Below the pieces are notes generated by a model, which saw nothing but the letters and a program-made list of their open reading frames with translations, searched no databases and was not told the origin of the DNA. Made by a program: the position numbers and the translations under genes. Positions 4,204-64,000 of a stretch of 64,000 nt of DNA are shown here, one piece after another. Each line of letters starts with the position of its first letter. The first letter of the stretch is position 1. The stretch is from Escherichia phage vB_vPM_PD114, in sequence record MH675927.1; one strand, given 5' to 3'.

Positions 4204-6165
4204 GTGATTTTAACACGTCCAAATAGTGCCATTGCAGACATGGTAGAGTCTCGCTATAGAAAGCGTAGAAGTTTTGCAAGTGGTTTTACCTTAAGAGATG
4301 CTCGTGAAGCATTGCTCTTTGAAGCTGACGGTAACTACTATCAGTGGAAAGGTTCTCTACCTAAAGTTGTACCTGCTAACTCTACTCCTACATCTACTGG
4401 AGGGATTTCAGATACAGCTTGGAAAAATGTGGGTAATGCAGATGACATTGCTCAAATAGAATCAGAATTAGATGCTATTGAAGCTGAAATTGAAGATCTT
4501 AGAGAATCCATCCCAGAAGCTGGTAAATCAGCTTACCAGATGGCCGTAGACAATGGTTTCCAAGGTACTGAGACACAGTGGTTGGCTTCTTTAAAAGGTG
4601 ATCCAGGTGCTCCATTAAAGCTATTAGGGACACTATCTAATACCAACCAATTACCTACAAGTGGAAACAATGCAGGGGATGCATGGATTGTAGGCGAGAA
4701 TATGTATGCTTGGGATGGTACTGCTTGGAGAAAAGTAAACTCACAGGGGCCAGAAGGTAAATCTGCTTATGAAGTATGGCTTGCAGCAGGAAACGAAGGT
4801 ACAGAACTAGATTATCTTGCCGCAATTAAAGGTGATAAAGGGGAGCCTGGCCCAGAGGGGCCACAAGGTGTGCCAGGTAACAATGCTAATGGTTTTGATT
4901 ACCAAGGTGCAGCTAATTCCGTTTCAGATCTTCCTTCTGCATCTCATGGAAACACATCTCAAGCATGGAGTGTTGGTACATATCTATACGTGTCAAACGG
5001 TGTAGAATGGATCAATATGGGCGCTATAGTGGGGCCAAAAGGAGATAAAGGCGACAAAGGAGATAAGGGTAACACTGGTGATTCAGCTTATCAAGTCTGG
5101 TTAAATGCTGGTAACGTTGGTACTATTGACGAATATATTGCCTCTCTGAAAGGAGAAAAAGGTGATAAGGGAGACAAGGGTGATCAAGGTGAACAGGGTA
5201 TACAAGGCTTGACGGGGCCAACTGGTGCAGGGTTGACCATTATTGACATTCTGACTAGCACTTCTGAACTGCCACAAACTGGAGAAGAGGGTGATGGTTA
5301 TCTGATCAATAATGAACTTTGGGTCTGGTTGCAAGGAGCCACAGAGTGGACAAATGTTGGTCGTTTAGCTGGTACTCCAATCACTGCAAAAGGACACGTT
5401 GCGTCTGCAAGTGCACTTCCTCCTACAGCTAATTACGGTGATGCTTATCTGACGGAAGATACAGGTCATCTTTACATTTACACCTATGATGAACAAACTC
5501 AAACTGCTGAATATGTAGATATGGGTAGTTTGAAAGGTGATAAGGGTGAAAAAGGTGACGCTGGTACTAACGGTACAGACGGTGCAACTTGGATTGTTAA
5601 AACAACAGATCCAATCTCTAGTGATGGTAAACAAGGTGATTATGCCTTTAATATCTCCACTGGCGAGGTGTTCTTAAAAACATCTGCAACTGTCTGGACT
5701 TCTCAAGGTACACTACCTAGTATCACAGATGCACCTAGTGATGGTAAGACTTATGCTCGTAAAGATGGAGCATGGGAAGAACTCACTAGTTCTGTAGATG
5801 GTCAAGATATAGTTCCAACAAAAGTAACAACTAATTTTATAGAGGTTACAGCATATACCAACAATTCTGTTACAGGGGACTGGACACCTCCAGGAACACA
5901 TAACATGAATGTGTTGAATCTTACTGGTAACTCTACTATAAAAGCATGGCCTGGTGTCGAAGATAGCACAAAACCTAAACCATTCTCTGCAATAGTTTAT
6001 CTTATCCAAGATGCCACTGGAGGTCATACTGTTACTTTAGATCCATCTTACAAAGTAATTGGTTCTAGTGATATTAATACAGATCCTAACGGAGTAACAA
6101 TACTACAACTAACATATTGTGGTGTTGGCGATTACGTGGATGCTATTGTTGCTAAACGCACATAA
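4204..6165 (+). CDS. tail fiber protein with collagen-like Gly-X-Y repeats
   Basis: GTG start with GGAG RBS; GDKGDKGDKG and GEKGDKGDKGDQGEQGIQGLTGPTGAG runs; 653 aa. Confidence 0.65.
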   Translation: MILTRPNSAIADMVESRYRKRRSFASGFTLRDAREALLFEADGNYYQWKGSLPKVVPANSTPTSTGGISDTAWKNVGNADDIAQIESELDAIEAEIEDLRESIPEAGKSAYQMAVDNGFQGTETQWLASLKGDPGAPLKLLGTLSNTNQLPTSGNNAGDAWIVGENMYAWDGTAWRKVNSQGPEGKSAYEVWLAAGNEGTELDYLAAIKGDKGEPGPEGPQGVPGNNANGFDYQGAANSVSDLPSASHGNTSQAWSVGTYLYVSNGVEWINMGAIVGPKGDKGDKGDKGNTGDSAYQVWLNAGNVGTIDEYIASLKGEKGDKGDKGDQGEQGIQGLTGPTGAGLTIIDILTSTSELPQTGEEGDGYLINNELWVWLQGATEWTNVGRLAGTPITAKGHVASASALPPTANYGDAYLTEDTGHLYIYTYDEQTQTAEYVDMGSLKGDKGEKGDAGTNGTDGATWIVKTTDPISSDGKQGDYAFNISTGEVFLKTSATVWTSQGTLPSITDAPSDGKTYARKDGAWEELTSSVDGQDIVPTKVTTNFIEVTAYTNNSVTGDWTPPGTHNMNVLNLTGNSTIKAWPGVEDSTKPKPFSAIVYLIQDATGGHTVTLDPSYKVIGSSDINTDPNGVTILQLTYCGVGDYVDAIVAKRT

Positions 6166-9306: not shown

Positions 9307-10254
9307 TTAGAAACAGTGCAGGAAGTTTCGACCATATTGCAAACCAATAGGAGCAAATGGGATATCATCATCGAAATCTTGAACAACAGGTTCTGGTTCT
9401 TTCGGTGCTGGCTCTTTCTTCTCTACTTTTTTAGTTTCTTTCTTAACTTCTTGTACTGGAATAGACATTCCACGGATAGCAGCAGCTACTTTATCAGACA
9501 AAGCAAGAACTTCACGAGCAGCTTCAATAATCTCTTCTGCCGTTACAGTTTTACCTGTATGATCACGACAAGCGTTAAGAATTGCGTGTCCAACTGAAGC
9601 ACCAAGATCATAGTCAGTCACATCAACGCCACGATCTTTAGCAATTTCAGCTTTCAGAGTAACAGTTGCAGATTGTACCACACCAGCCAAGTCGAAAGCA
9701 TCACCTTTCACACCAGCACGTAGAAGCTCCAGAGCGCCGTTTACAGCGTGTCCTGTTTCAATCCCTACGGTATCACGTTTTTTGTAGTTAGGCTTGCTAC
9801 CGTCATTATTAGATGGCTTATTTCCACCTTTTGAAGAGGATTGTGCTTGCTGAACACCTTCTGTTGAAAGAATAGTGATTTTACCTTTAGAGGAGTTGTA
9901 GTATGTTTTGCCATTCCATTCGGAAGGTTTAACATCCATAGTTAGTTCTACGCCTTTTTCGATAGTAACCCACTTATCACCATCTTTAACTTGCAGGTTT
10001 TCATGTTCTGGGTGCAGTTTAACTTCACCTAGGCTAACCCAAACACCTTTATCATCAGCACCAGCACCTTTCTCTTTAATAAGCAGAGATGCTTTGTGAG
10101 TTGATTCAATTTTCTTATCTGGTTGACCTGCAACCTTAATATAAGAGACTTTCATTTCATCAAACTTATCTAGTTTGACATATTCGACAATACCTTCAGC
10201 CCAGAATGCTTCTTTTTTAGTACGACGGTCGATTTCAGAATTAATTACTGGCAT
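9307..10254 (-). CDS. putative ssDNA-binding protein (SSB-like acidic motif DFDDDIPF near C-terminus)
   Basis: GAGGAG RBS; 315 aa; contains DFDDDIPF, identical to the E. coli SSB C-terminal tip, but followed by 15 extra residues (APIGLQYGRNFLHCF); adjacent to replication genes. Confidence 0.4.
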   Translation of the reverse strand: MPVINSEIDRRTKKEAFWAEGIVEYVKLDKFDEMKVSYIKVAGQPDKKIESTHKASLLIKEKGAGADDKGVWVSLGEVKLHPEHENLQVKDGDKWVTIEKGVELTMDVKPSEWNGKTYYNSSKGKITILSTEGVQQAQSSSKGGNKPSNNDGSKPNYKKRDTVGIETGHAVNGALELLRAGVKGDAFDLAGVVQSATVTLKAEIAKDRGVDVTDYDLGASVGHAILNACRDHTGKTVTAEEIIEAAREVLALSDKVAAAIRGMSIPVQEVKKETKKVEKKEPAPKEPEPVVQDFDDDIPFAPIGLQYGRNFLHCF

Positions 10255-38813: not shown

Positions 38814-41588
38814 TTAGTTTACCAGTTTATTTATGTCTGGTAAAAGATTTATTTCACCTAAGAAATCACCTTCACCTTCCTCTAGCCAACTCTCATATGC
38901 TTGTGCATGATTATAGTTACCATCAAAAGAATCTGCAACAAATTTTTCTACAGTTTTTCGAGATGTGCCAGCGCCAAATACACCAAGTTTAATACCATTG
39001 ATCGGTAAAGTGGTGCTTGTGGGTACTTTCTCTGTTGCAACACGGTTGATATCTATAATCTCCTGTACGGTTGTGTTCCATTGTAAGCATTTAACACAAC
39101 GGGTATGCGCTACATACAGTAGGTTTCGCTCTGCCTCTTCTAGTCCTACCCACTCACCAGTCTTTTTATCATAGTTGGAAGGAAAATCATTAGCAACAAT
39201 AACCTGATCCCACTCCAAACCTTTAGACTTGTGTGCTGTAGTCAATGTGACTTTTGCTGTAGGAGAATTTCTATGCGTTCTAAGTGTATGTGCTATAGTG
39301 TTTGCCTTACCAGAAACTACAATGTTTAACAAGCGTTTAGCATCTGGATCAGCCTCTGCACACTCAACAAATTCATTCCAGTCTGCGTAAGGTAATACAG
39401 TTTCATGTTTTACTTTCTCAATATCTCCTCTCCGAAGAGCATTAACACTATCTACCATAGAGATAAAATCCCTGGTATCTACGTTAATAATAATTTCTTC
39501 CCCATCTGCAATACGATCCATTGCCTCCATAAGCAAGGTTAAATTCTTGCGAAAGATGATAGTGTAAGGTTTTGTATAGTCTACAACATCTGATTTGTAG
39601 CTACCTACTACAGTATCAAAGCCTTTACCAACCAAAGGATGACGCAAAGGTTCTTTATCACTTAAAATCATATTTGCAATGTTTGCCACTTTGGGGCCAA
39701 AACGGAAGCAAGCAGTTAATGGAAGCTCTGCCCCATACTTAGCTGTTTCAATCATCATATTAGAGCTACCTCTAAATTGATAAATGCAGTTGTGGCTAAG
39801 AATTTCATTGCCAAAAAAGTTAGCAGTATCTTCTACTTCAATATCATAATAGATACCCTCACTATCTACAATGTCCACTATCTCTTCTGCCGTTACAGTA
39901 TCACCATCTTTTACTAACACAGACATGCCTTTAAACAAACCCGCTGCCGGAATTAAATTATATTTGGCAGTGTTCACAGAGGACATGCATTCTTTTAAAG
40001 ATGCAAACGGAACTATTTCAAGGATCTTTTGTGCAAAACTCAATGCTTCACGATAAGAATTGAAATATTTACGTACACGGTAACGACCTTCCAATTTAGC
40101 AACACTTACGCTTACACCTGCTTCAATGAGTGAGGCATAGATTGGCATTTCACTTTCTGTCCACTCAAAGCTAACTTGTGTTCCTTTACAACCTTGTGCT
40201 CGCAAAGTCACTGTTAACATTTTTCTTGCATCTACTGCACAATTGATGCTGTGCCAATGTGGATAAGCAAAATGATAGTCTTTATCCTCTAAAAGTTTAA
40301 AACCATTTTGTCCGAATTGTTCAAAGATATTGTTGATCCTTTCTTGATTAATACCGCGTGAACTTGCTTCAAATACACAAGTAGGAATGCCATATTGTAA
40401 ACTGTATGCCATTTCTTTTTCCATAGCAGCTTCACGGTTTTCAACAATATCCAACACCCACAACTTCTGTGCTTTTTCAGAACGTGTACGTTGCCCCAGT
40501 TTAGAAAAACCTTCTTTATCATCGAATTTGTTAGTGATCCCTACTCGGAAACCTAAATCTTTTCTCCACATTAGGTATACCACCATCTGATCATCTTTCA
40601 GAACATAAGGTGAAGCCCAAATACGATGGTTATGTGTCATATCTAAAGTCTTACCTTTAGCAGTAATAATATTCCTACCTTTTGTACGTGTAGATAAAGT
40701 CTTATTTGTTACTTTTCTAAATGTAACTTTACCGTTAGAATAAGACTCTACCTTATCACCGATTTGCAGGTCTTTCATTGTAACCTGACCATTTTCGGTA
40801 TTAAGTACCGTGTTTTCTGACACACATTGGAATTCATCACCAACTACCACAATTTGTTTGGCAGATTTAGCATTCCGCAGAATAGACAAGAATGCAGGGT
40901 TAACATCCTGGAATTCATCCCCAAAAATAATGTCATAACCAAGATCAGCACCAGACAATTCAAACAATTTTACATAGGTGTCATGCGTCATCAAAGTATC
41001 TGTGTTAGGGTCAATGCGCTCTCGCCACAATTGTTTTGCATACTTAACTACTTCTGTAATTAGTTTGTGTTCGTTAATACCTTTTCTTTTAATATCTGCA
41101 AGATGTACACTAGGAAAATGTTTACGGCTGATAAAAGGATCATCCGAAAATTCAAACTTACCTACGGTTTGCTTGATCATTAAACCAATCATAGCACGAG
41201 TTAAAAGTGTTTTCCCTCGTTTATCAATAAGATTATTAATCTTAAATTTCTTTGCTATCTCACTACCTGTACCTGCAACGTTAACATACTGTCCTTCTGG
41301 TCGTGACAGTTTTGCACGTAAACGATGATCCAGGAATTGATAGCAAATGGAATGCAATGTACGGCATTCTACATTTGGTGGCATCTTACGCCGTGCTTCT
41401 TCTGCCATGCTTTTATTGAAAGCTAAGTAAAGAATGCGATCTTCTGTACTGTTAGCCAGCAAATAAAGTGTTGACGTTTTTCCTGATCCAGATTTAGCTT
41501 GGATAGTTAAAAACCGATGATCTGGAAAAGCCTCCTTAATAGCTGTTTGCTCTTCTGTTGGAGTAAAACTCAACTCTTTCTTAGCCAT
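38814..41588 (-). CDS. UvrD/PcrA-like superfamily 1 DNA helicase; contains an intein
   Basis: Walker A AKSGSGKTS, motif II IIFGDEFQD, motif III VVVGDEFQ|...|CIYQFRGSS split by the intein; start at ATG 41588 (RBS AGAGAGG). Confidence 0.85.
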   Translation of the reverse strand: MAKKELSFTPTEEQTAIKEAFPDHRFLTIQAKSGSGKTSTLYLLANSTEDRILYLAFNKSMAEEARRKMPPNVECRTLHSICYQFLDHRLRAKLSRPEGQYVNVAGTGSEIAKKFKINNLIDKRGKTLLTRAMIGLMIKQTVGKFEFSDDPFISRKHFPSVHLADIKRKGINEHKLITEVVKYAKQLWRERIDPNTDTLMTHDTYVKLFELSGADLGYDIIFGDEFQDVNPAFLSILRNAKSAKQIVVVGDEFQCVSENTVLNTENGQVTMKDLQIGDKVESYSNGKVTFRKVTNKTLSTRTKGRNIITAKGKTLDMTHNHRIWASPYVLKDDQMVVYLMWRKDLGFRVGITNKFDDKEGFSKLGQRTRSEKAQKLWVLDIVENREAAMEKEMAYSLQYGIPTCVFEASSRGINQERINNIFEQFGQNGFKLLEDKDYHFAYPHWHSINCAVDARKMLTVTLRAQGCKGTQVSFEWTESEMPIYASLIEAGVSVSVAKLEGRYRVRKYFNSYREALSFAQKILEIVPFASLKECMSSVNTAKYNLIPAAGLFKGMSVLVKDGDTVTAEEIVDIVDSEGIYYDIEVEDTANFFGNEILSHNCIYQFRGSSNMMIETAKYGAELPLTACFRFGPKVANIANMILSDKEPLRHPLVGKGFDTVVGSYKSDVVDYTKPYTIIFRKNLTLLMEAMDRIADGEEIIINVDTRDFISMVDSVNALRRGDIEKVKHETVLPYADWNEFVECAEADPDAKRLLNIVVSGKANTIAHTLRTHRNSPTAKVTLTTAHKSKGLEWDQVIVANDFPSNYDKKTGEWVGLEEAERNLLYVAHTRCVKCLQWNTTVQEIIDINRVATEKVPTSTTLPINGIKLGVFGAGTSRKTVEKFVADSFDGNYNHAQAYESWLEEGEGDFLGEINLLPDINKLVN
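39789..40826 (-). mobile_element. intein in helicase motif III (346 codons)
   Basis: Starts CVSENTVLNTENGQVTMKDLQIGDKV (canonical intein N-terminal block), ends FFGNEILSHN followed by Cys; removal restores VVVGDEFQ-CIYQFRGSS. Confidence 0.75.
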
Positions 41589-52416: not shown

Positions 52417-52634
52417 TATTTTGAAAATTTTTATTTTTATAAAAAGGGGTGTGGGTTTCATGTACGGAAATCCACCCTCTGAATAATATATCCAGAGTAA
52501 GTAGTATTCTGTACTCTGTTAATAAAGTATTTAATTTGTTTGTTGGACTATGATATCTGATCTTTAAAAGGCATACTATCTCTTAACTACTACTTATAAC
52601 AAAACAGTAAAATCCTTTTTATAAAAAGTACAAA

Positions 52635-52840
52635 ATTATTTAAAGTTTTTACAGATTTTCGGGTACAAATTTTGAAAATGAAAAGTTCAAGTTTGGTCAA
52701 AATTATTTAAAGTTTTTGTACGTATTTCTATCCAGATTTTGAAAATGAAAACTTCAATTTTTTAAAAATTCCCCAGTTTATTTAAAGTTTTTTTGCCTTT
52801 TTCCGTAGAAAAATCAAAAATGAAAAGTTCAATTTCGTGT
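52635..52840. repeat. three tandem direct repeats of about 66-76 bp
   Basis: Each unit has TTATTTAAAGTTTTT (52635, 52701, 52777) and TTTTGAAAATGAAAAGTTCAA (52671, 52737, 52811). Confidence 0.7.
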
Positions 52841-52855
52841 TTTTATAGGTGTGTT

Positions 52856-52967
52856 AATGAGAATCATTTTCGTTTGTAAATGAGAATCATTATCATTTAA
52901 CTATGTAAGTGATAATCATTCTCAGTAAGAGAATGAGAATCATTAGCAAATGAGAATTTTTCTCATT
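52856..52967. promoter_or_regulatory. cluster of Fur-box-like palindromic sites (AATGAGAATCATT family)
   Basis: At least five copies; AATGAGAATCATTATC (52879-52894) matches 15/16 positions of the E. coli Fur consensus; perfect palindrome AATGAGAA-TTT-TTCTCATT at 52948-52966. Confidence 0.45.
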
Positions 52968-53229
52968 TACAGAATAACGCGCAGGGGCGGTGTTTGTCTC
53001 GCGCTCCCGTGTCCCCTCGCCATACAATAAGAATAGCATAACCAACAACAAAAGCAAGCGATTATTTTTATCTTTACATTTCTTTACAAATTTATTTTAG
53101 ACGAGCTACCGGCGATCAACCTTCCAACCAGTGCCCCCTGGTATGTTAGCCCCGCCTTTACGCCGTGGGGGTGGCGTTTCCTCTTCTGTATGTAAAACAG
53201 TATAAGCCCGATCCCTGGGCTTGTCAAGA

Positions 53230-53496
53230 TTATTTTTTGTTTTCTTGCCAGGATAGGACACCTAACCAAAAATACATGTCGCCCCGCGCCCCTGGTGGGA
53301 TCTTGCTTTCCCCGCCGCCACTGCAAGCCCATAGATAACCATTTACGAACGTATCAAAGTGATCTATCTCTTCCACCTTATGATCGCCCAGGTTGAGAAC
53401 GGTTTCAACCTTTAAGCCCGTTGCGCTTGCTACCTGGTGCACCGTGCCGCCTTGCCAGCCCAGTGAGTGCATGAGATGTAAAGGAGTATTTGTCAT
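53230..53496 (-). CDS. hypothetical protein in a G+C-rich island
   Basis: 88-aa ORF with RBS AAAGGG; region is visibly more G+C-rich than its surroundings; no motif recognised. Confidence 0.35.
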   Translation of the reverse strand: MTNTPLHLMHSLGWQGGTVHQVASATGLKVETVLNLGDHKVEEIDHFDTFVNGYLWACSGGGESKIPPGARGDMYFWLGVLSWQENKK

Positions 53497-53607
53497 GGTA
53501 TCGCCCTTTCTTTGTTGTGCGCCCTGGTTGGCGCGGTAGAAAGATGATAGCCGTTTCCTTTATAGATAGCAAGCAAAAAAGAAATGAAAAAAGATTAAAA
53601 AAAATGG

Positions 53608-53636
53608 TTGACGTTCCTCACCTGGTAGCGTAGTAT
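53608..53636 (+). promoter_or_regulatory. sigma70-like promoter (TTGACG-17-TAGTAT), first of the rightward early-gene array
   Basis: Near-consensus hexamers with 17-bp spacer about 130 nt upstream of 53765. Confidence 0.5.
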
Positions 53637-53764
53637 TCATCTTGTCGAGGGGCGGCAAGGCACAACGACAATAAACAATAGGCGGGTGCAATGCAAGACG
53701 GGCAAAGGTGAGGATCTCCACAATCCACCGTCACAATAACATTACTTATAAAAGGTTGATAACA

Positions 53765-53869
53765 ATGATCAAGAAAGAAAATAGCTTGACGGTTGGAACG
53801 ATTAACGCTATCATTCTTGCCGTTCCCTTTTGGATTGTAGTGTCAGTTATTATTTCAATCATTCTATAA
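53765..53869 (+). CDS. small membrane peptide (34 aa; not in ORF track)
   Basis: ATG with AAAGG RBS; hydrophobic. Confidence 0.3.
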   Translation: MIKKENSLTVGTINAIILAVPFWIVVSVIISIIL

Positions 53870-53879
53870 GGCGCACACT

Positions 53880-54161
53880 ATGAGCAAGGTAATTAGTCAT
53901 AAAGAGTTAAGCCCTACTCTTTCAATGAGTGAGTGCACCGATGGCTTTTGGCTGTATGATGATACGCGCGGCATGAATTTAGCTATGCGTGAAAAAACAG
54001 AAGAGGCGGCGTATATTGAAGCCCTGGAATACTACCAGGAACGACTAAAGGAAGTAGAAAACAATTATAATAACCTAAAAACAAAGGTAGATCATTTTAT
54101 CAGCCAGGTGGCAGATGACGACGATGATCACTATTGCGAGCGGTGCGGATCATACAGCTAA
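53880..54161 (+). CDS. hypothetical protein
   Basis: 93 aa; acidic DDDDD tract and C-terminal CERCG. Confidence 0.45.
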   Translation: MSKVISHKELSPTLSMSECTDGFWLYDDTRGMNLAMREKTEEAAYIEALEYYQERLKEVENNYNNLKTKVDHFISQVADDDDDHYCERCGSYS

Positions 54162-62481: not shown

Positions 62482-62865
62482 ATGAGCAATATCATCAACC
62501 TGGCGGCTACTGTAAACGGTAAAGATTTTAATGGCGCTGTAGATCGTGATCCTATGTGGTGCTTATCCGTATTCAAAGGTGACTTGGTTGAAGTTAGAAC
62601 AACCGAAGGTTATAGCGACGATTATAAATGTGAGATTCATTTGCACAACTGGTACACGGGTAAAACTTATGCGCTGAATCATGCGTTTATCGGGAAAATT
62701 GAATATCGCGAGATGATCGACGAGGAAACCGGGCAAGATTTTAGCGATTATGTTTATATTCGTTCAGAAACATTAGCCGAACGTTTGATCGAGAAAATGA
62801 AAGCAAAAAATAAAATTAATTTAGCTCATTGGCTTGATATAACAAACGATCCGGCTTATAAGTAA
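62482..62865 (+). CDS. hypothetical protein
   Basis: 127 aa; RBS GAGGAA; last gene before the terminator and AT-rich region. Confidence 0.5.
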   Translation: MSNIINLAATVNGKDFNGAVDRDPMWCLSVFKGDLVEVRTTEGYSDDYKCEIHLHNWYTGKTYALNHAFIGKIEYREMIDEETGQDFSDYVYIRSETLAERLIEKMKAKNKINLAHWLDITNDPAYK

Positions 62866-62877
62866 ATAACATTTCAC

Positions 62878-62907
62878 ACAAGGGCGCAATAAGCGCCCTT
62901 TCTTTTT
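62878..62907 (+). terminator. rho-independent terminator (GGGCGC-AATA-GCGCCC)
   Basis: Same hairpin as at 57997; followed by TTTCTTTTT. Confidence 0.7.
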
Positions 62908-63111
62908 ACCTCAATAAAGATGATATCTTTTACCTATCAAAAACGTTCACCGAAAAAGTGAATAGATCGCGGTATCGAGCTAATCAAGGAGCAGATGAAC
63001 AACCATACCATGAAGATCATAAGGCGCTTACAACGTGTTTTAGACCGCTTATTTTTAATTTCTTCATGCAACTATCTGGCAAAAACAGCCTTTTTCTTGT
63101 CTTTCCTCTTA

Positions 63112-63184
63112 AATGATAATCATTCTTATTTATAGCTGATTATTTATGCAATAAACTGAATAATGTAATAATGATAATCATTCT
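63112..63184. promoter_or_regulatory. two Fur-box-like sites (AATGATAATCATTCTTA)
   Basis: ATAATGATAATCATTCT (63168-63184) matches 16/17 positions of the E. coli Fur consensus; second copy at 63112-63128. Confidence 0.45.
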
Positions 63185-63911
63185 TAACTTAAGACCATCT
63201 AACCTATAAAATAATAAGTTATCTAACTAAATTAAAACTAATTATCTCACCTTTATTTATAACTTACTGTTACTATGTCATTGATAACCTTATATTAAAC
63301 AACAATAACTAATATAAATCATTACTAAGCTAAATATAATATATCTAACCTTTAAAACTATAACTATAATCTATTGAATTATTGCACAAAGTAACTATTA
63401 AATCGTTAGTAACATTACTAAATAATTCATATCCTATCTATTTATAATCTAACCTTTATCTTCCTATCTATTACCTAAGTAATCATTTCATACAATAATT
63501 ATAACAAGAAATATAATTAGCAAGCGTATCATTAGCAGCCTATGCCGGACACATAGGCGGCTAATAATAACGCAACTACACACCTCACATAATAACCATC
63601 ACCGATAGTTATTATCTGTGCTTATGTAGCTTGCAACAACTGCAAGCGCAACAATATACATGGTATATTGTATTCCCTTACATTGTTGCGGTGCGTTATT
63701 ATTAGCTAATGTTTGGAACATTGGCTATAATATAAGCTATCCAATAATAAACATAGTGAATAATGACCCTGATGATCATAATGCGCCACCTTCCAGGGGG
63801 CGCTATGTGAACACAAAGAAATCTTTCTTGTCAAGAAAAATATTACCATTATTGCGCAAAATTATTTACATCTGAATAGATGGTTTTTCATACTATTGCC
63901 CCCAATACTAT

Positions 63912-64000
63912 CCCTATTTGTTGTTATTTGTTGGATAAAATTATCCCTATTTGTTGCAGTATAAACTATTATTTGTTGCCCTAACTATTGCTATTTGTTG
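63912..64000. repeat. iteron-like direct repeats (C)TATTTGTTG, at least five copies, running to the window edge
   Basis: CCCTATTTGTTG at 63912 and 63945; TTATTTGTTG at 63924 and 63969; CTATTTGTTG at 63991. Confidence 0.6.

Follow-up and report, generated by a model that had tools for sequence, protein, structure and literature searches.

Two copies of a short palindromic repeat at positions 63112-63186 of Escherichia phage vB_vPM_PD114 (sequence record MH675927.1; the 64,000-nucleotide stretch analysed here is called the window) resemble the operators of the bacterial iron-sensing protein Fur. Judged by sequence criteria these sites are predicted operator-grade Fur boxes, and we lean towards the view that they act as functional Fur-type protein-binding sites of an element associated with the genome terminus. 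That Fur would bind them in vitro is considerably more probable than that they are functional in this sense, and any single downstream role of the element is doubtful at best. The likeliest reading is that this right cluster, or right pair, belongs to a set of Fur-box repeats associated with the terminus, which would serve a barrier or architectural role. On this reading the right pair is not a stand-alone regulator of a neighbouring gene.

Fur-box-like sites of the right pair

The 15-mer AATGATAATCATTCT lies on the plus strand at 63112-63126 and again at 63170-63184; lengthened by TA it occurs exactly twice, at 63112-63128 and 63170-63186. The identical unit of both copies is 17 nucleotides (nt) long, AATGATAATCATTCTTA, and the start-to-start distance is 58 bp. 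As the Fur consensus we used the 19-bp dyad GATAATGATAATCATTATC, as quoted in PMC3788343, and its 17-mer form ATAATGATAATCATTAT. Site 1 (63109-63127, with TTAAATGATAATCATTCTT in the 19-bp frame and its repeat unit at 63112-63128) agrees with the dyad at 14/19 positions, and site 2 (63167-63185, AATAATGATAATCATTCTT, repeat unit 63170-63186) at 16/19, or at 16/17 over ATAATGATAATCATTAT. Between them lies a spacer (63128-63166) that contains TGATTATTTATGCAATA...TG(C/A)ATAATG and that in phi92 and muut carries the short inverted repeat TTATGCA/TGCATAA.

To calibrate these scores, we counted consensus matches in the footprinted E. coli K-12 operators of the ent-fep cluster. They scored 13/19 (fepA-fes), 16 and 15 (fepD-entS), 15 (fepB) and 15 (entC), and the right pair, with 16/19 and 14/19, falls within this range of 13-16/19 and carries the same 19-bp dyad motif as entC/fepB, fepD-entS, fepA-fes and the aerobactin operator iucA. 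The phage scores of 14-16/19 in fact equal or exceed those of the footprinted operators. Site 1 (TAAATGATAATCATTCTT) is identical to the E. coli entC operator TAAATGATAATCATTATT at 17/18 positions. Tabulated on both strands, 26 sites from seven phages show a conserved core and the 21-bp, or 7-1-7, signature of Fur. The flanks of the extended model tGATAAT...ATTATCa, positions 0 and 20, played no part in the selection of these sites, and yet T occupies position 0, or A position 20, in 34/52 half-sites.

An earlier note on this DNA, made from the sequence alone, had described two Fur-box-like sites, the better one matching the consensus at 16/17 positions, in AT-rich DNA just after the last early-gene terminator. 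Both positions proved exact, the local DNA is 26% GC, and the pair lies 210-285 bp past the terminator at 62880-62900. The description of the sites as Fur-box-like stands as well, since their scores match those of real E. coli operators and they are non-random and conserved.

Unlike the E. coli operators, the right pair overlaps no credible promoter and controls no evident iron-related or other gene; it is carried by a virulent phage in terminus-proximal non-coding DNA, and binding by Fur is here a prediction.

Distribution and conservation of the motif

With at most two mismatches allowed, the motif has 9 matches in the window against 0.47 expected, and 8/9 of them fall within the right cluster and a second cluster to its left (52853-52970). 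We also assembled the genome of PD211, a close relative, in full (149.5 kb, 97.9% identical). All 9 of its copies of the 13-bp core AATGATAATCATT (at most one mismatch) are confined to three non-coding spots, namely the regions that correspond to the terminal repeat and to the left and right clusters, and the other ~145 kb hold no sites. Sites scoring at least 16/19 number 4 in PD211, against 0.06 expected from 100 second-order Markov genomes. Compositional chance is excluded as the origin of the motif. The earlier note had named a similar density throughout the genome as the result that would speak for such chance; copies were found at the three non-coding spots only. The note had also proposed that the two clusters bracket the whole array of promoters and hairpins. 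They do flank the block of sigma-70 promoters, but the third set of sites in the terminal repeat was missed, and by sequence the arrangement appears as three clusters around the end region, not two framing a block. The note's bracketing picture is thus incomplete, as is its suggestion that a looping protein might bridge the two clusters.

The region past the terminator was aligned across Justusliebigvirus, Phapecoctavirus (~69% identity) and Klebsiella phage KP13-26. In the resulting three-clade profile, positions 63107-63184 form an island of conservation which peaks, at 12/15 columns, exactly at site 1. The spacer is conserved by alignment and profile alike, with 8-11/15 columns identical across the three clades, and conservation is low (3-6/15 columns) in the flanks at 62978-63106 and past 63185. 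The 58-bp spacing is identical in Justusliebigvirus and KP13-26. Site 2 is conserved in these two and degenerate in Phapecoctavirus, and site 1 has a core G-to-A change in PD06/PD211. More distant relatives, whose anchor protein is 64-78% identical, also have Fur-like sites downstream of the anchor gene, in an anchor-gene search of IMG/VR that yielded only 5 loci.

Three clusters around the genome end

The 1.6 kb around the right pair are 93-98% identical to Escherichia phages of Justusliebigvirus (phi92, PD06/PD211, muut and others), and by sequence the window is assigned to a phi92-like coliphage of the genus Justusliebigvirus, Stephanstirmvirinae. In phi92 the counterpart of this region is the last 1.5 kb ahead of the right copy of the 343-bp direct terminal repeat (148270-148612 of the annotated record). 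The window's last base coincides with ...CTATTTGTTG, the sequence that precedes the terminal repeat in phi92. An array of 5-6 direct copies of (CC)CTATTTGTTG (63904-64000, plus strand) reaches the window's final base, where the phi92 terminal repeat starts. At the annotated repeat start, phi92 reads ...CCTATTTGTTG up to the boundary and AGCCTAC after it, and it holds 2 copies of the (CC)CTATTTGTTG unit. With this array as a landmark, the right pair lies ~0.9 kb from the terminal repeat.

Upstream of the right pair is a ~10-kb block of small plus-strand open reading frames (ORFs) with ~20 near-consensus sigma-70 promoters. The block closes with a homologue of phi92 gp248 (62482-62865), the last early gene, which is ended by an intrinsic terminator on the plus strand (62880-62900) that marks the right limit of the promoters. 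In relatives, further small plus-strand genes lie beyond the terminal repeat, and the first gene after the right pair is more than 1.5 kb off, past that repeat. There is no gene between the right pair and the terminal repeat, and no conserved ORF downstream. The right pair thus sits in a ~2.3-kb non-coding region that holds the physical genome ends.

The left cluster (52853-52970) consists of 4-6 sites of the same motif that score 15-16/19, and it lies 11.4 kb (7.65% of the genome) from the right physical end. The third set lies just past the window's end, within the 343-bp terminal repeat of phi92 and muut. In phi92 this set comprises GTAAATGATAATCATTATC, which scores 17/19, at repeat positions 74-92 (4650-4668 of record L002), and a 6-bp-phased trio, GATAATGCAAATGATAATTATTCTCATTGAT, at positions 263-293 (L002 4839-4869, with frames at 4839, 4845 and 4851). 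These sites are at most 100 bp from each repeat boundary and hence from each end of the virion DNA, and between the two groups is the promoter-like sequence TTGACA-17-TAGACT (138-166, L008). Natural Fur clusters of E. coli are built of sites that overlap in a 6-bp register (PMC2189734); overlap at 6 or 3 bp allows more than one dimer to bind. This register is present in the left cluster, where the overlapping frames are 52876/52882 and 52905/52911, and in the terminal repeat. Altogether there are ~11 sites of this type per genome.

Several other features adjoin the left and terminal-repeat clusters. Three direct repeats of ~66 bp (ATTTAAAGTTTTT...TTTTGAAAATGAAAAGTTCAA) lie directly upstream of the left cluster, at 52620-52850. 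Several hairpins occur in the stretch after it, 52975-53880, which is ORF-poor with a GC content of 47-50%, and a strong promoter on the minus strand, TTGACA-17-TATACT (53227 to 53199), is directed at the left Fur-like array. A G-rich run, GAGGGGGACGGTCGG...GGGGGGCGCTG, is found at the right edge of the terminal repeat.

The injection-stop-signal region of phage T5

The same motif occurs in the one region of this kind that is tied to a phenotype. Copies 1-4 of direct repeat C of phage T5, together with palindromes E-I (Repeat Region 3, 9468-9637), are made of the Fur-like motif (TTTTTAAATGAGAATCATT..., TAAATGAGAATCATTATCATTT, TTAAATGAGAATCATTATCATTTGC, GAGATTGATTCTCATTATC), and this array lies immediately left of the 7.9% nick. 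Record AY692264 labels the T5 segment 9460-9645 "injection stop signal". T5 (9575-9596) and the left cluster of the window (52877-52898) have an identical 22-mer in common, the trio of the phi92 terminal repeat matches T5 at 24/25 positions, and the right cluster (63112-63129) matches T5 9572-9589 at 17/18. When T5 9460-9645 was compared by BLAST with 50,697 phage records, it matched 623 records, comprising Demerecviridae, Justusliebigvirus and Phapecoctavirus, and in the relatives of our phage the match fell on the left-cluster locus. Davison's analysis of the T5 region stressed DnaA boxes and palindromes and left Fur unmentioned (10.1101/866236).

The likeness extends to the setting. Both arrays are non-coding, lie beside a G/C-rich palindrome and mark the inner edge of a ~10-kb early block transcribed by host polymerase, most genes of the intervening block being transcribed toward the terminus. 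A distance of 7.65% of the genome separates the left cluster from the right end, and the T5 signal is at 7.9%. There are also clear differences. Paired DnaA boxes flank the T5 array, which is embedded in a terminal repeat of 10 kb (10.1101/866236). Regions of the T5 type lie inside a long terminal repeat (8-13 kb) at the boundary of first-step transfer, whereas the repeat of phi92 measures 343 bp and does not reach the right cluster, ~0.9 kb away. A T5-like fractional distance from an end is seen for the left cluster alone, and the right cluster has no obvious counterpart in T5. Phi92-like phages are not known to inject their DNA in two steps. The DnaA box TTATCCACA, allowing at most one mismatch, has 23 matches in the window against 22 expected, none of them in the clusters. 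A blastp comparison of the T5 terminal-repeat ORFs, including A1 and A2, with the ORFs of window positions 52-64 kb and of phi92 1-12.5 kb gave no match.

Further Fur-like and T5-like sequences turned up as well. The window's sole perfect DnaA box (TTATCCACA, at 40258-40266 on the minus strand) adjoins a 15/19 Fur-like sequence at 40268-40286, probably by chance. T5 itself (L257) has a double Fur-like site, GGAACTGATAATCATTATCATCCTC, at 228-252, which scores 16/19 in two frames 6 bp apart; it is 228 bp from the left terminus and within the dmp coding region. In the window, GTTTTAGACCGCTTATTTT (63036-63057) resembles the T5 inverted repeat B/B' (GTTTTAGGC(C/G)GCTTATTTT; L257 5285-5310 and 6184-6209), which it matches at 18/19. 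This match was not significant on shuffling, nor were other 12-14-mer matches to T5, and GTTTTAGACCGCTTATTTT is not conserved in Phapecoctavirus.

Fur-like arrays in other viruses

A scan of IMG/VR with the exact 16-mer AATGATAATCATTATC extended the motif to further phages. Among the matches listed are many viral contigs, with GC contents from 21% to 57%, that carry whole Fur-like repeat arrays in non-coding DNA, with repeat periods of 35 to ~45 bp. Arrays in unrelated viral contigs, given by their locus numbers, include L089 1195-1471, L103 10762-11325 (with three perfect 19/19 boxes), L131 623-902, L030 2361-2748 and L259 240-385. Loci with at least four sites made up 13/120 for the Fur motif and 2/120 for a composition-matched scrambled palindrome, again among the matches listed.

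These arrays tend to sit at particular places. Several lie upstream of putative operons for the small and large terminase subunits, in Xp15-like or Acinetobacter-phage-like contigs (L131, L086, L065, L103, L120) and in L017/L031 and L098. The L089 array, at the genome end, follows a terminase gene of the T7 type; four perfect DnaA boxes (TGTGGATAA) stand between its sites, and by BLAST the array matched T5-like phages. In the cultured T7-like roseophage CRP-143, three sites lie 240-385 bp from the record end. Most arrays adjoin a G/C-rich run, which in T5 contains palindrome J and the 7.9% nick. The recurrent theme of the arrays is proximity to the genome ends or to the start of packaging, and the T5 stop region is the one element among them tied to a phenotype.

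An all-against-all blastp of array-flanking ORFs, early ORFs of phi92-like phages and T5 terminal-repeat ORFs found no protein family common to these phage groups. The motif is thus shared by T5-like, phi92-like, T7-like and cos-type phages without a detected shared protein, and a conserved host binder is therefore the most economical explanation. Fur is the host protein whose operator these sites match.

Other features of the genome end

The end region contains further elements. A search for transfer RNA genes found none, and an Rfam search of 52.3-64 kb gave two sub-threshold chance matches only and no family. Just past the terminator, at 62915-62982, a block reading GATGATA.CTTTTACCTAT...AAAAGTGAATA.ATCGCGGTATCGAGCTAATCA is nearly invariant in Justusliebigvirus, Phapecoctavirus and KP13-26; it has neither an ORF nor a consensus promoter. 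Cumulative GC skew reaches its maximum near 62.8 kb. Downstream of the right pair, 63185-63520 has ~20% GC and a strongly negative GC skew, with ATCTAACC(T) at 63197, 63343 and 63446 and two copies of TCCTATCTATT, and it resembles an iteron or unwinding region.

Positions 63535-63710 hold a perfect 15-nt inverted repeat (63560-63574 and 63692-63706) around a second one (63647-63658 and 63679-63690), as well as a hairpin at 63535-63562. This segment could be a structured RNA or a cruciform; in Rfam it gave a sub-threshold BsrG match only. The (CC)CTATTTGTTG array at the window's end may be an end-recognition or pausing element. In T7, too, short repeats adjoin the terminal repeat. The annotated "repeat_region" of muut (L001 4082-4143) is a different repeat, TAATCATTTCATACA, in 3-4 copies; it is single-copy in the window (63480-63500), and its copy number thus differs among relatives.

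A proposed role for the clusters and its weak points

We propose that a Fur dimer binds the two repeats of the right pair as operator-type sites, which would make them host Fur boxes on a virulent phage. They would belong to a set of ~11 sites placed at the left edge of the ~10-kb sigma-70 block, at its right edge and in the 343-bp terminal repeat. Iron-loaded host Fur, which is abundant and multimerises on DNA, would be drawn to the terminus-proximal phage DNA and would there build a nucleoprotein barrier or an architectural complex. Hypothetically, this complex could stall DNA entry or read-through by RNA polymerase and so set the limit of the first-expressed end segment, comparable to what has been proposed for host-factor boxes in T5, and it could also, or instead, aid the recognition of ends in packaging, as IHF does at lambda cosB.

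Sites for host proteins are known or proposed in comparable places. The cosB site of lambda holds the IHF site I1. The DnaA boxes in the first-step-transfer DNA of T5 are, in Davison's hypothesis, likewise motifs for a host protein in non-coding DNA near an end, with a proposed role in architecture or arrest. The host protein differs from both in the case proposed here, where it would be Fur, and the role, hypothetical in T5, is a proposal here.

Several observations weigh against this reading. The right pair consists of two lone sites, neither with another frame scoring 14/19 or more at +/-6 bp and hence without the 6-bp register of the other clusters. Both copies have the same non-consensus flank, CTTA, a hint of recent duplication in place. 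Neither site is essential by itself, since the closest relative has a mutated site 1 and Phapecoctavirus a degenerate site 2. No conserved sigma-70 promoter overlaps the pair: the only candidate (TTAACT-17-TAAAAT, 63184-63212, 9/12), which abuts site 2, was not retained in Phapecoctavirus. A possible 46-amino-acid hydrophobic ORF (62995-63135, MNNHTMKIIRRLQRVLDRLFLISSCNYLAKTAFFLSFLLNDNHSYL) with an AAGGAG ribosome-binding site has its 3' end inside site 1; this ORF is confined to Justusliebigvirus and has no start codon in Phapecoctavirus. Beyond the phi92-like phages, the IMG/VR loci were selected by the motif itself and carry a selection bias, and loci with 2-3 sites were about as numerous for the scrambled control, such that only arrays of at least four sites are informative. 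Finally, the motif consistently takes the form GAGAAT...ATTCTC or GCAAAT...ATTTGC in many arrays, which could reflect a different binder.

Alternative explanations

The strongest alternative is that a phage-encoded protein binds the repeats, either a small terminase subunit or other packaging factor acting at a cosB- or pac-like site, or an early repressor, and that the likeness to Fur boxes is coincidence or mimicry. We regard this as unlikely, although it explains a good deal. Arrays directly upstream of putative small and large terminase subunit (TerS/TerL) operons (L131/L086/L065/L103, L017/L031 and L098), or, at the genome end, after a terminase gene of the T7 type (L089, CRP-143), are what it would lead one to look for. 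So are the phi92 sites at most 100 bp from both repeat boundaries and the sites in the right terminal repeat of T5, ~0.5 kb from the end. The G/C-rich run that most arrays abut could be a cleavage site, and many copies share a consistent GAGAAT/ATTCTC variant. However, no shared protein was detectable near the arrays or in the early regions compared, and terminase small subunits are highly diverse, which makes an identical 22-mer in T5 and phi92-like phages hard to explain by a phage protein. The terminal-repeat copies lie at 74-92 and 263-293 bp of the 343-bp repeat. The right and left clusters, at 0.9 kb and 11 kb from it, are not where a cutting complex would assemble. The unselected flanks, moreover, obey the model for Fur.

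A less probable alternative keeps Fur as the binder and changes the purpose. Replicating phage DNA, with ~11 sites per genome, would titrate Fur, de-repress iron uptake and RyhB, and so supply iron for the phage ribonucleotide reductase and other enzymes. Titration of Fur by multicopy boxes is well known and is the basis of the Fur titration assay (PMC2189734, PMC3788343), in which, as here, many good Fur boxes are carried on a high-copy replicon. Many high-quality sites per genome without promoters would fit such a sponge, and the perfect DnaA boxes among the Fur-like sites of L089 suggest decoys for host factors. However, the assay is a laboratory plasmid artefact, and the use of titration by a phage is only conjectured. 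A sponge has no need of the conserved position, the 58-bp spacing or the terminal clustering, and sites are absent from the other ~145 kb; a benefit late in the lytic cycle, after host shut-off, is doubtful, and we found no support for it in the literature.

It is equally improbable that the pair is a classical operator which, under iron-replete conditions, represses the promoter of a rightward transcript (a non-coding RNA, or read-through into the terminal repeat and gp1) or of the ORF at 62995-63135. Site 2 does abut the -35 element of the 9/12 candidate promoter, and a structured segment (63535-63710) lies downstream. Furthermore, 303/363 Fur clusters of E. coli overlap promoters (PMC2189734). 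Yet the candidate is weak and poorly conserved, promoter-like matches around the right pair and in the end region of muut and phi92 do not exceed shuffle expectation, and downstream there is no Rfam family, no conserved ORF and no gene for more than 1.5 kb. The right pair has no credible promoter whereas most E. coli Fur clusters overlap one, and a model of a repressor at a promoter therefore fits poorly. A classical Fur-repressed promoter at the right pair is not supported.

Least probable, and very unlikely, is a non-functional relic or chance product, an AT-rich palindrome duplicated locally and carried along: the copies are identical down to their non-consensus flank and site 1 was lost in PD06/PD211 and site 2 in Phapecoctavirus, but the motif is strongly enriched and strictly localised, it lies in an island conserved across three clades at ~69% background identity, and it recurs in T5 and other phages.

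Implications for phi92-like and T5-like phages

Fur boxes are textbook bacterial operators, yet here they are placed away from any promoter that could be repressed. We found no description of Fur boxes in phi92/rV5-like phages, lytic phages, T5 or phage genomes in the searchable literature; in lambdoid phages a fur box precedes sitABCD (PMC6969025). As far as we searched, the link of the motif to the T5 injection-stop region and to end-proximal arrays elsewhere is undescribed.

A bolder hypothesis, which we consider speculative and unlikely, is that Fur-box arrays are a widespread terminus element that recruits Fur in virulent and cos-type phages, among them T5-like, phi92-like, T7-like and Xp15-like ones. 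Fur would then be the missing host factor of the T5 stop, and phi92-like phages would have a T5-like first-delivered or first-expressed segment of ~11.4 kb, bounded on its inner side by the left cluster and at its outer end by the right and terminal-repeat clusters. If so, DNA entry, end protection or packaging would be coupled to the iron status of the host.

If Fur does bind the sites described here, this would bear on the arrest of DNA transfer in T5 and on the role of the large non-coding ends of phi92/rV5-like phages. An iron-sensing protein would then join the short list of host factors, IHF and possibly DnaA, that phages put to structural use, and such a dependence could matter for phage therapy at iron-limited sites of infection.

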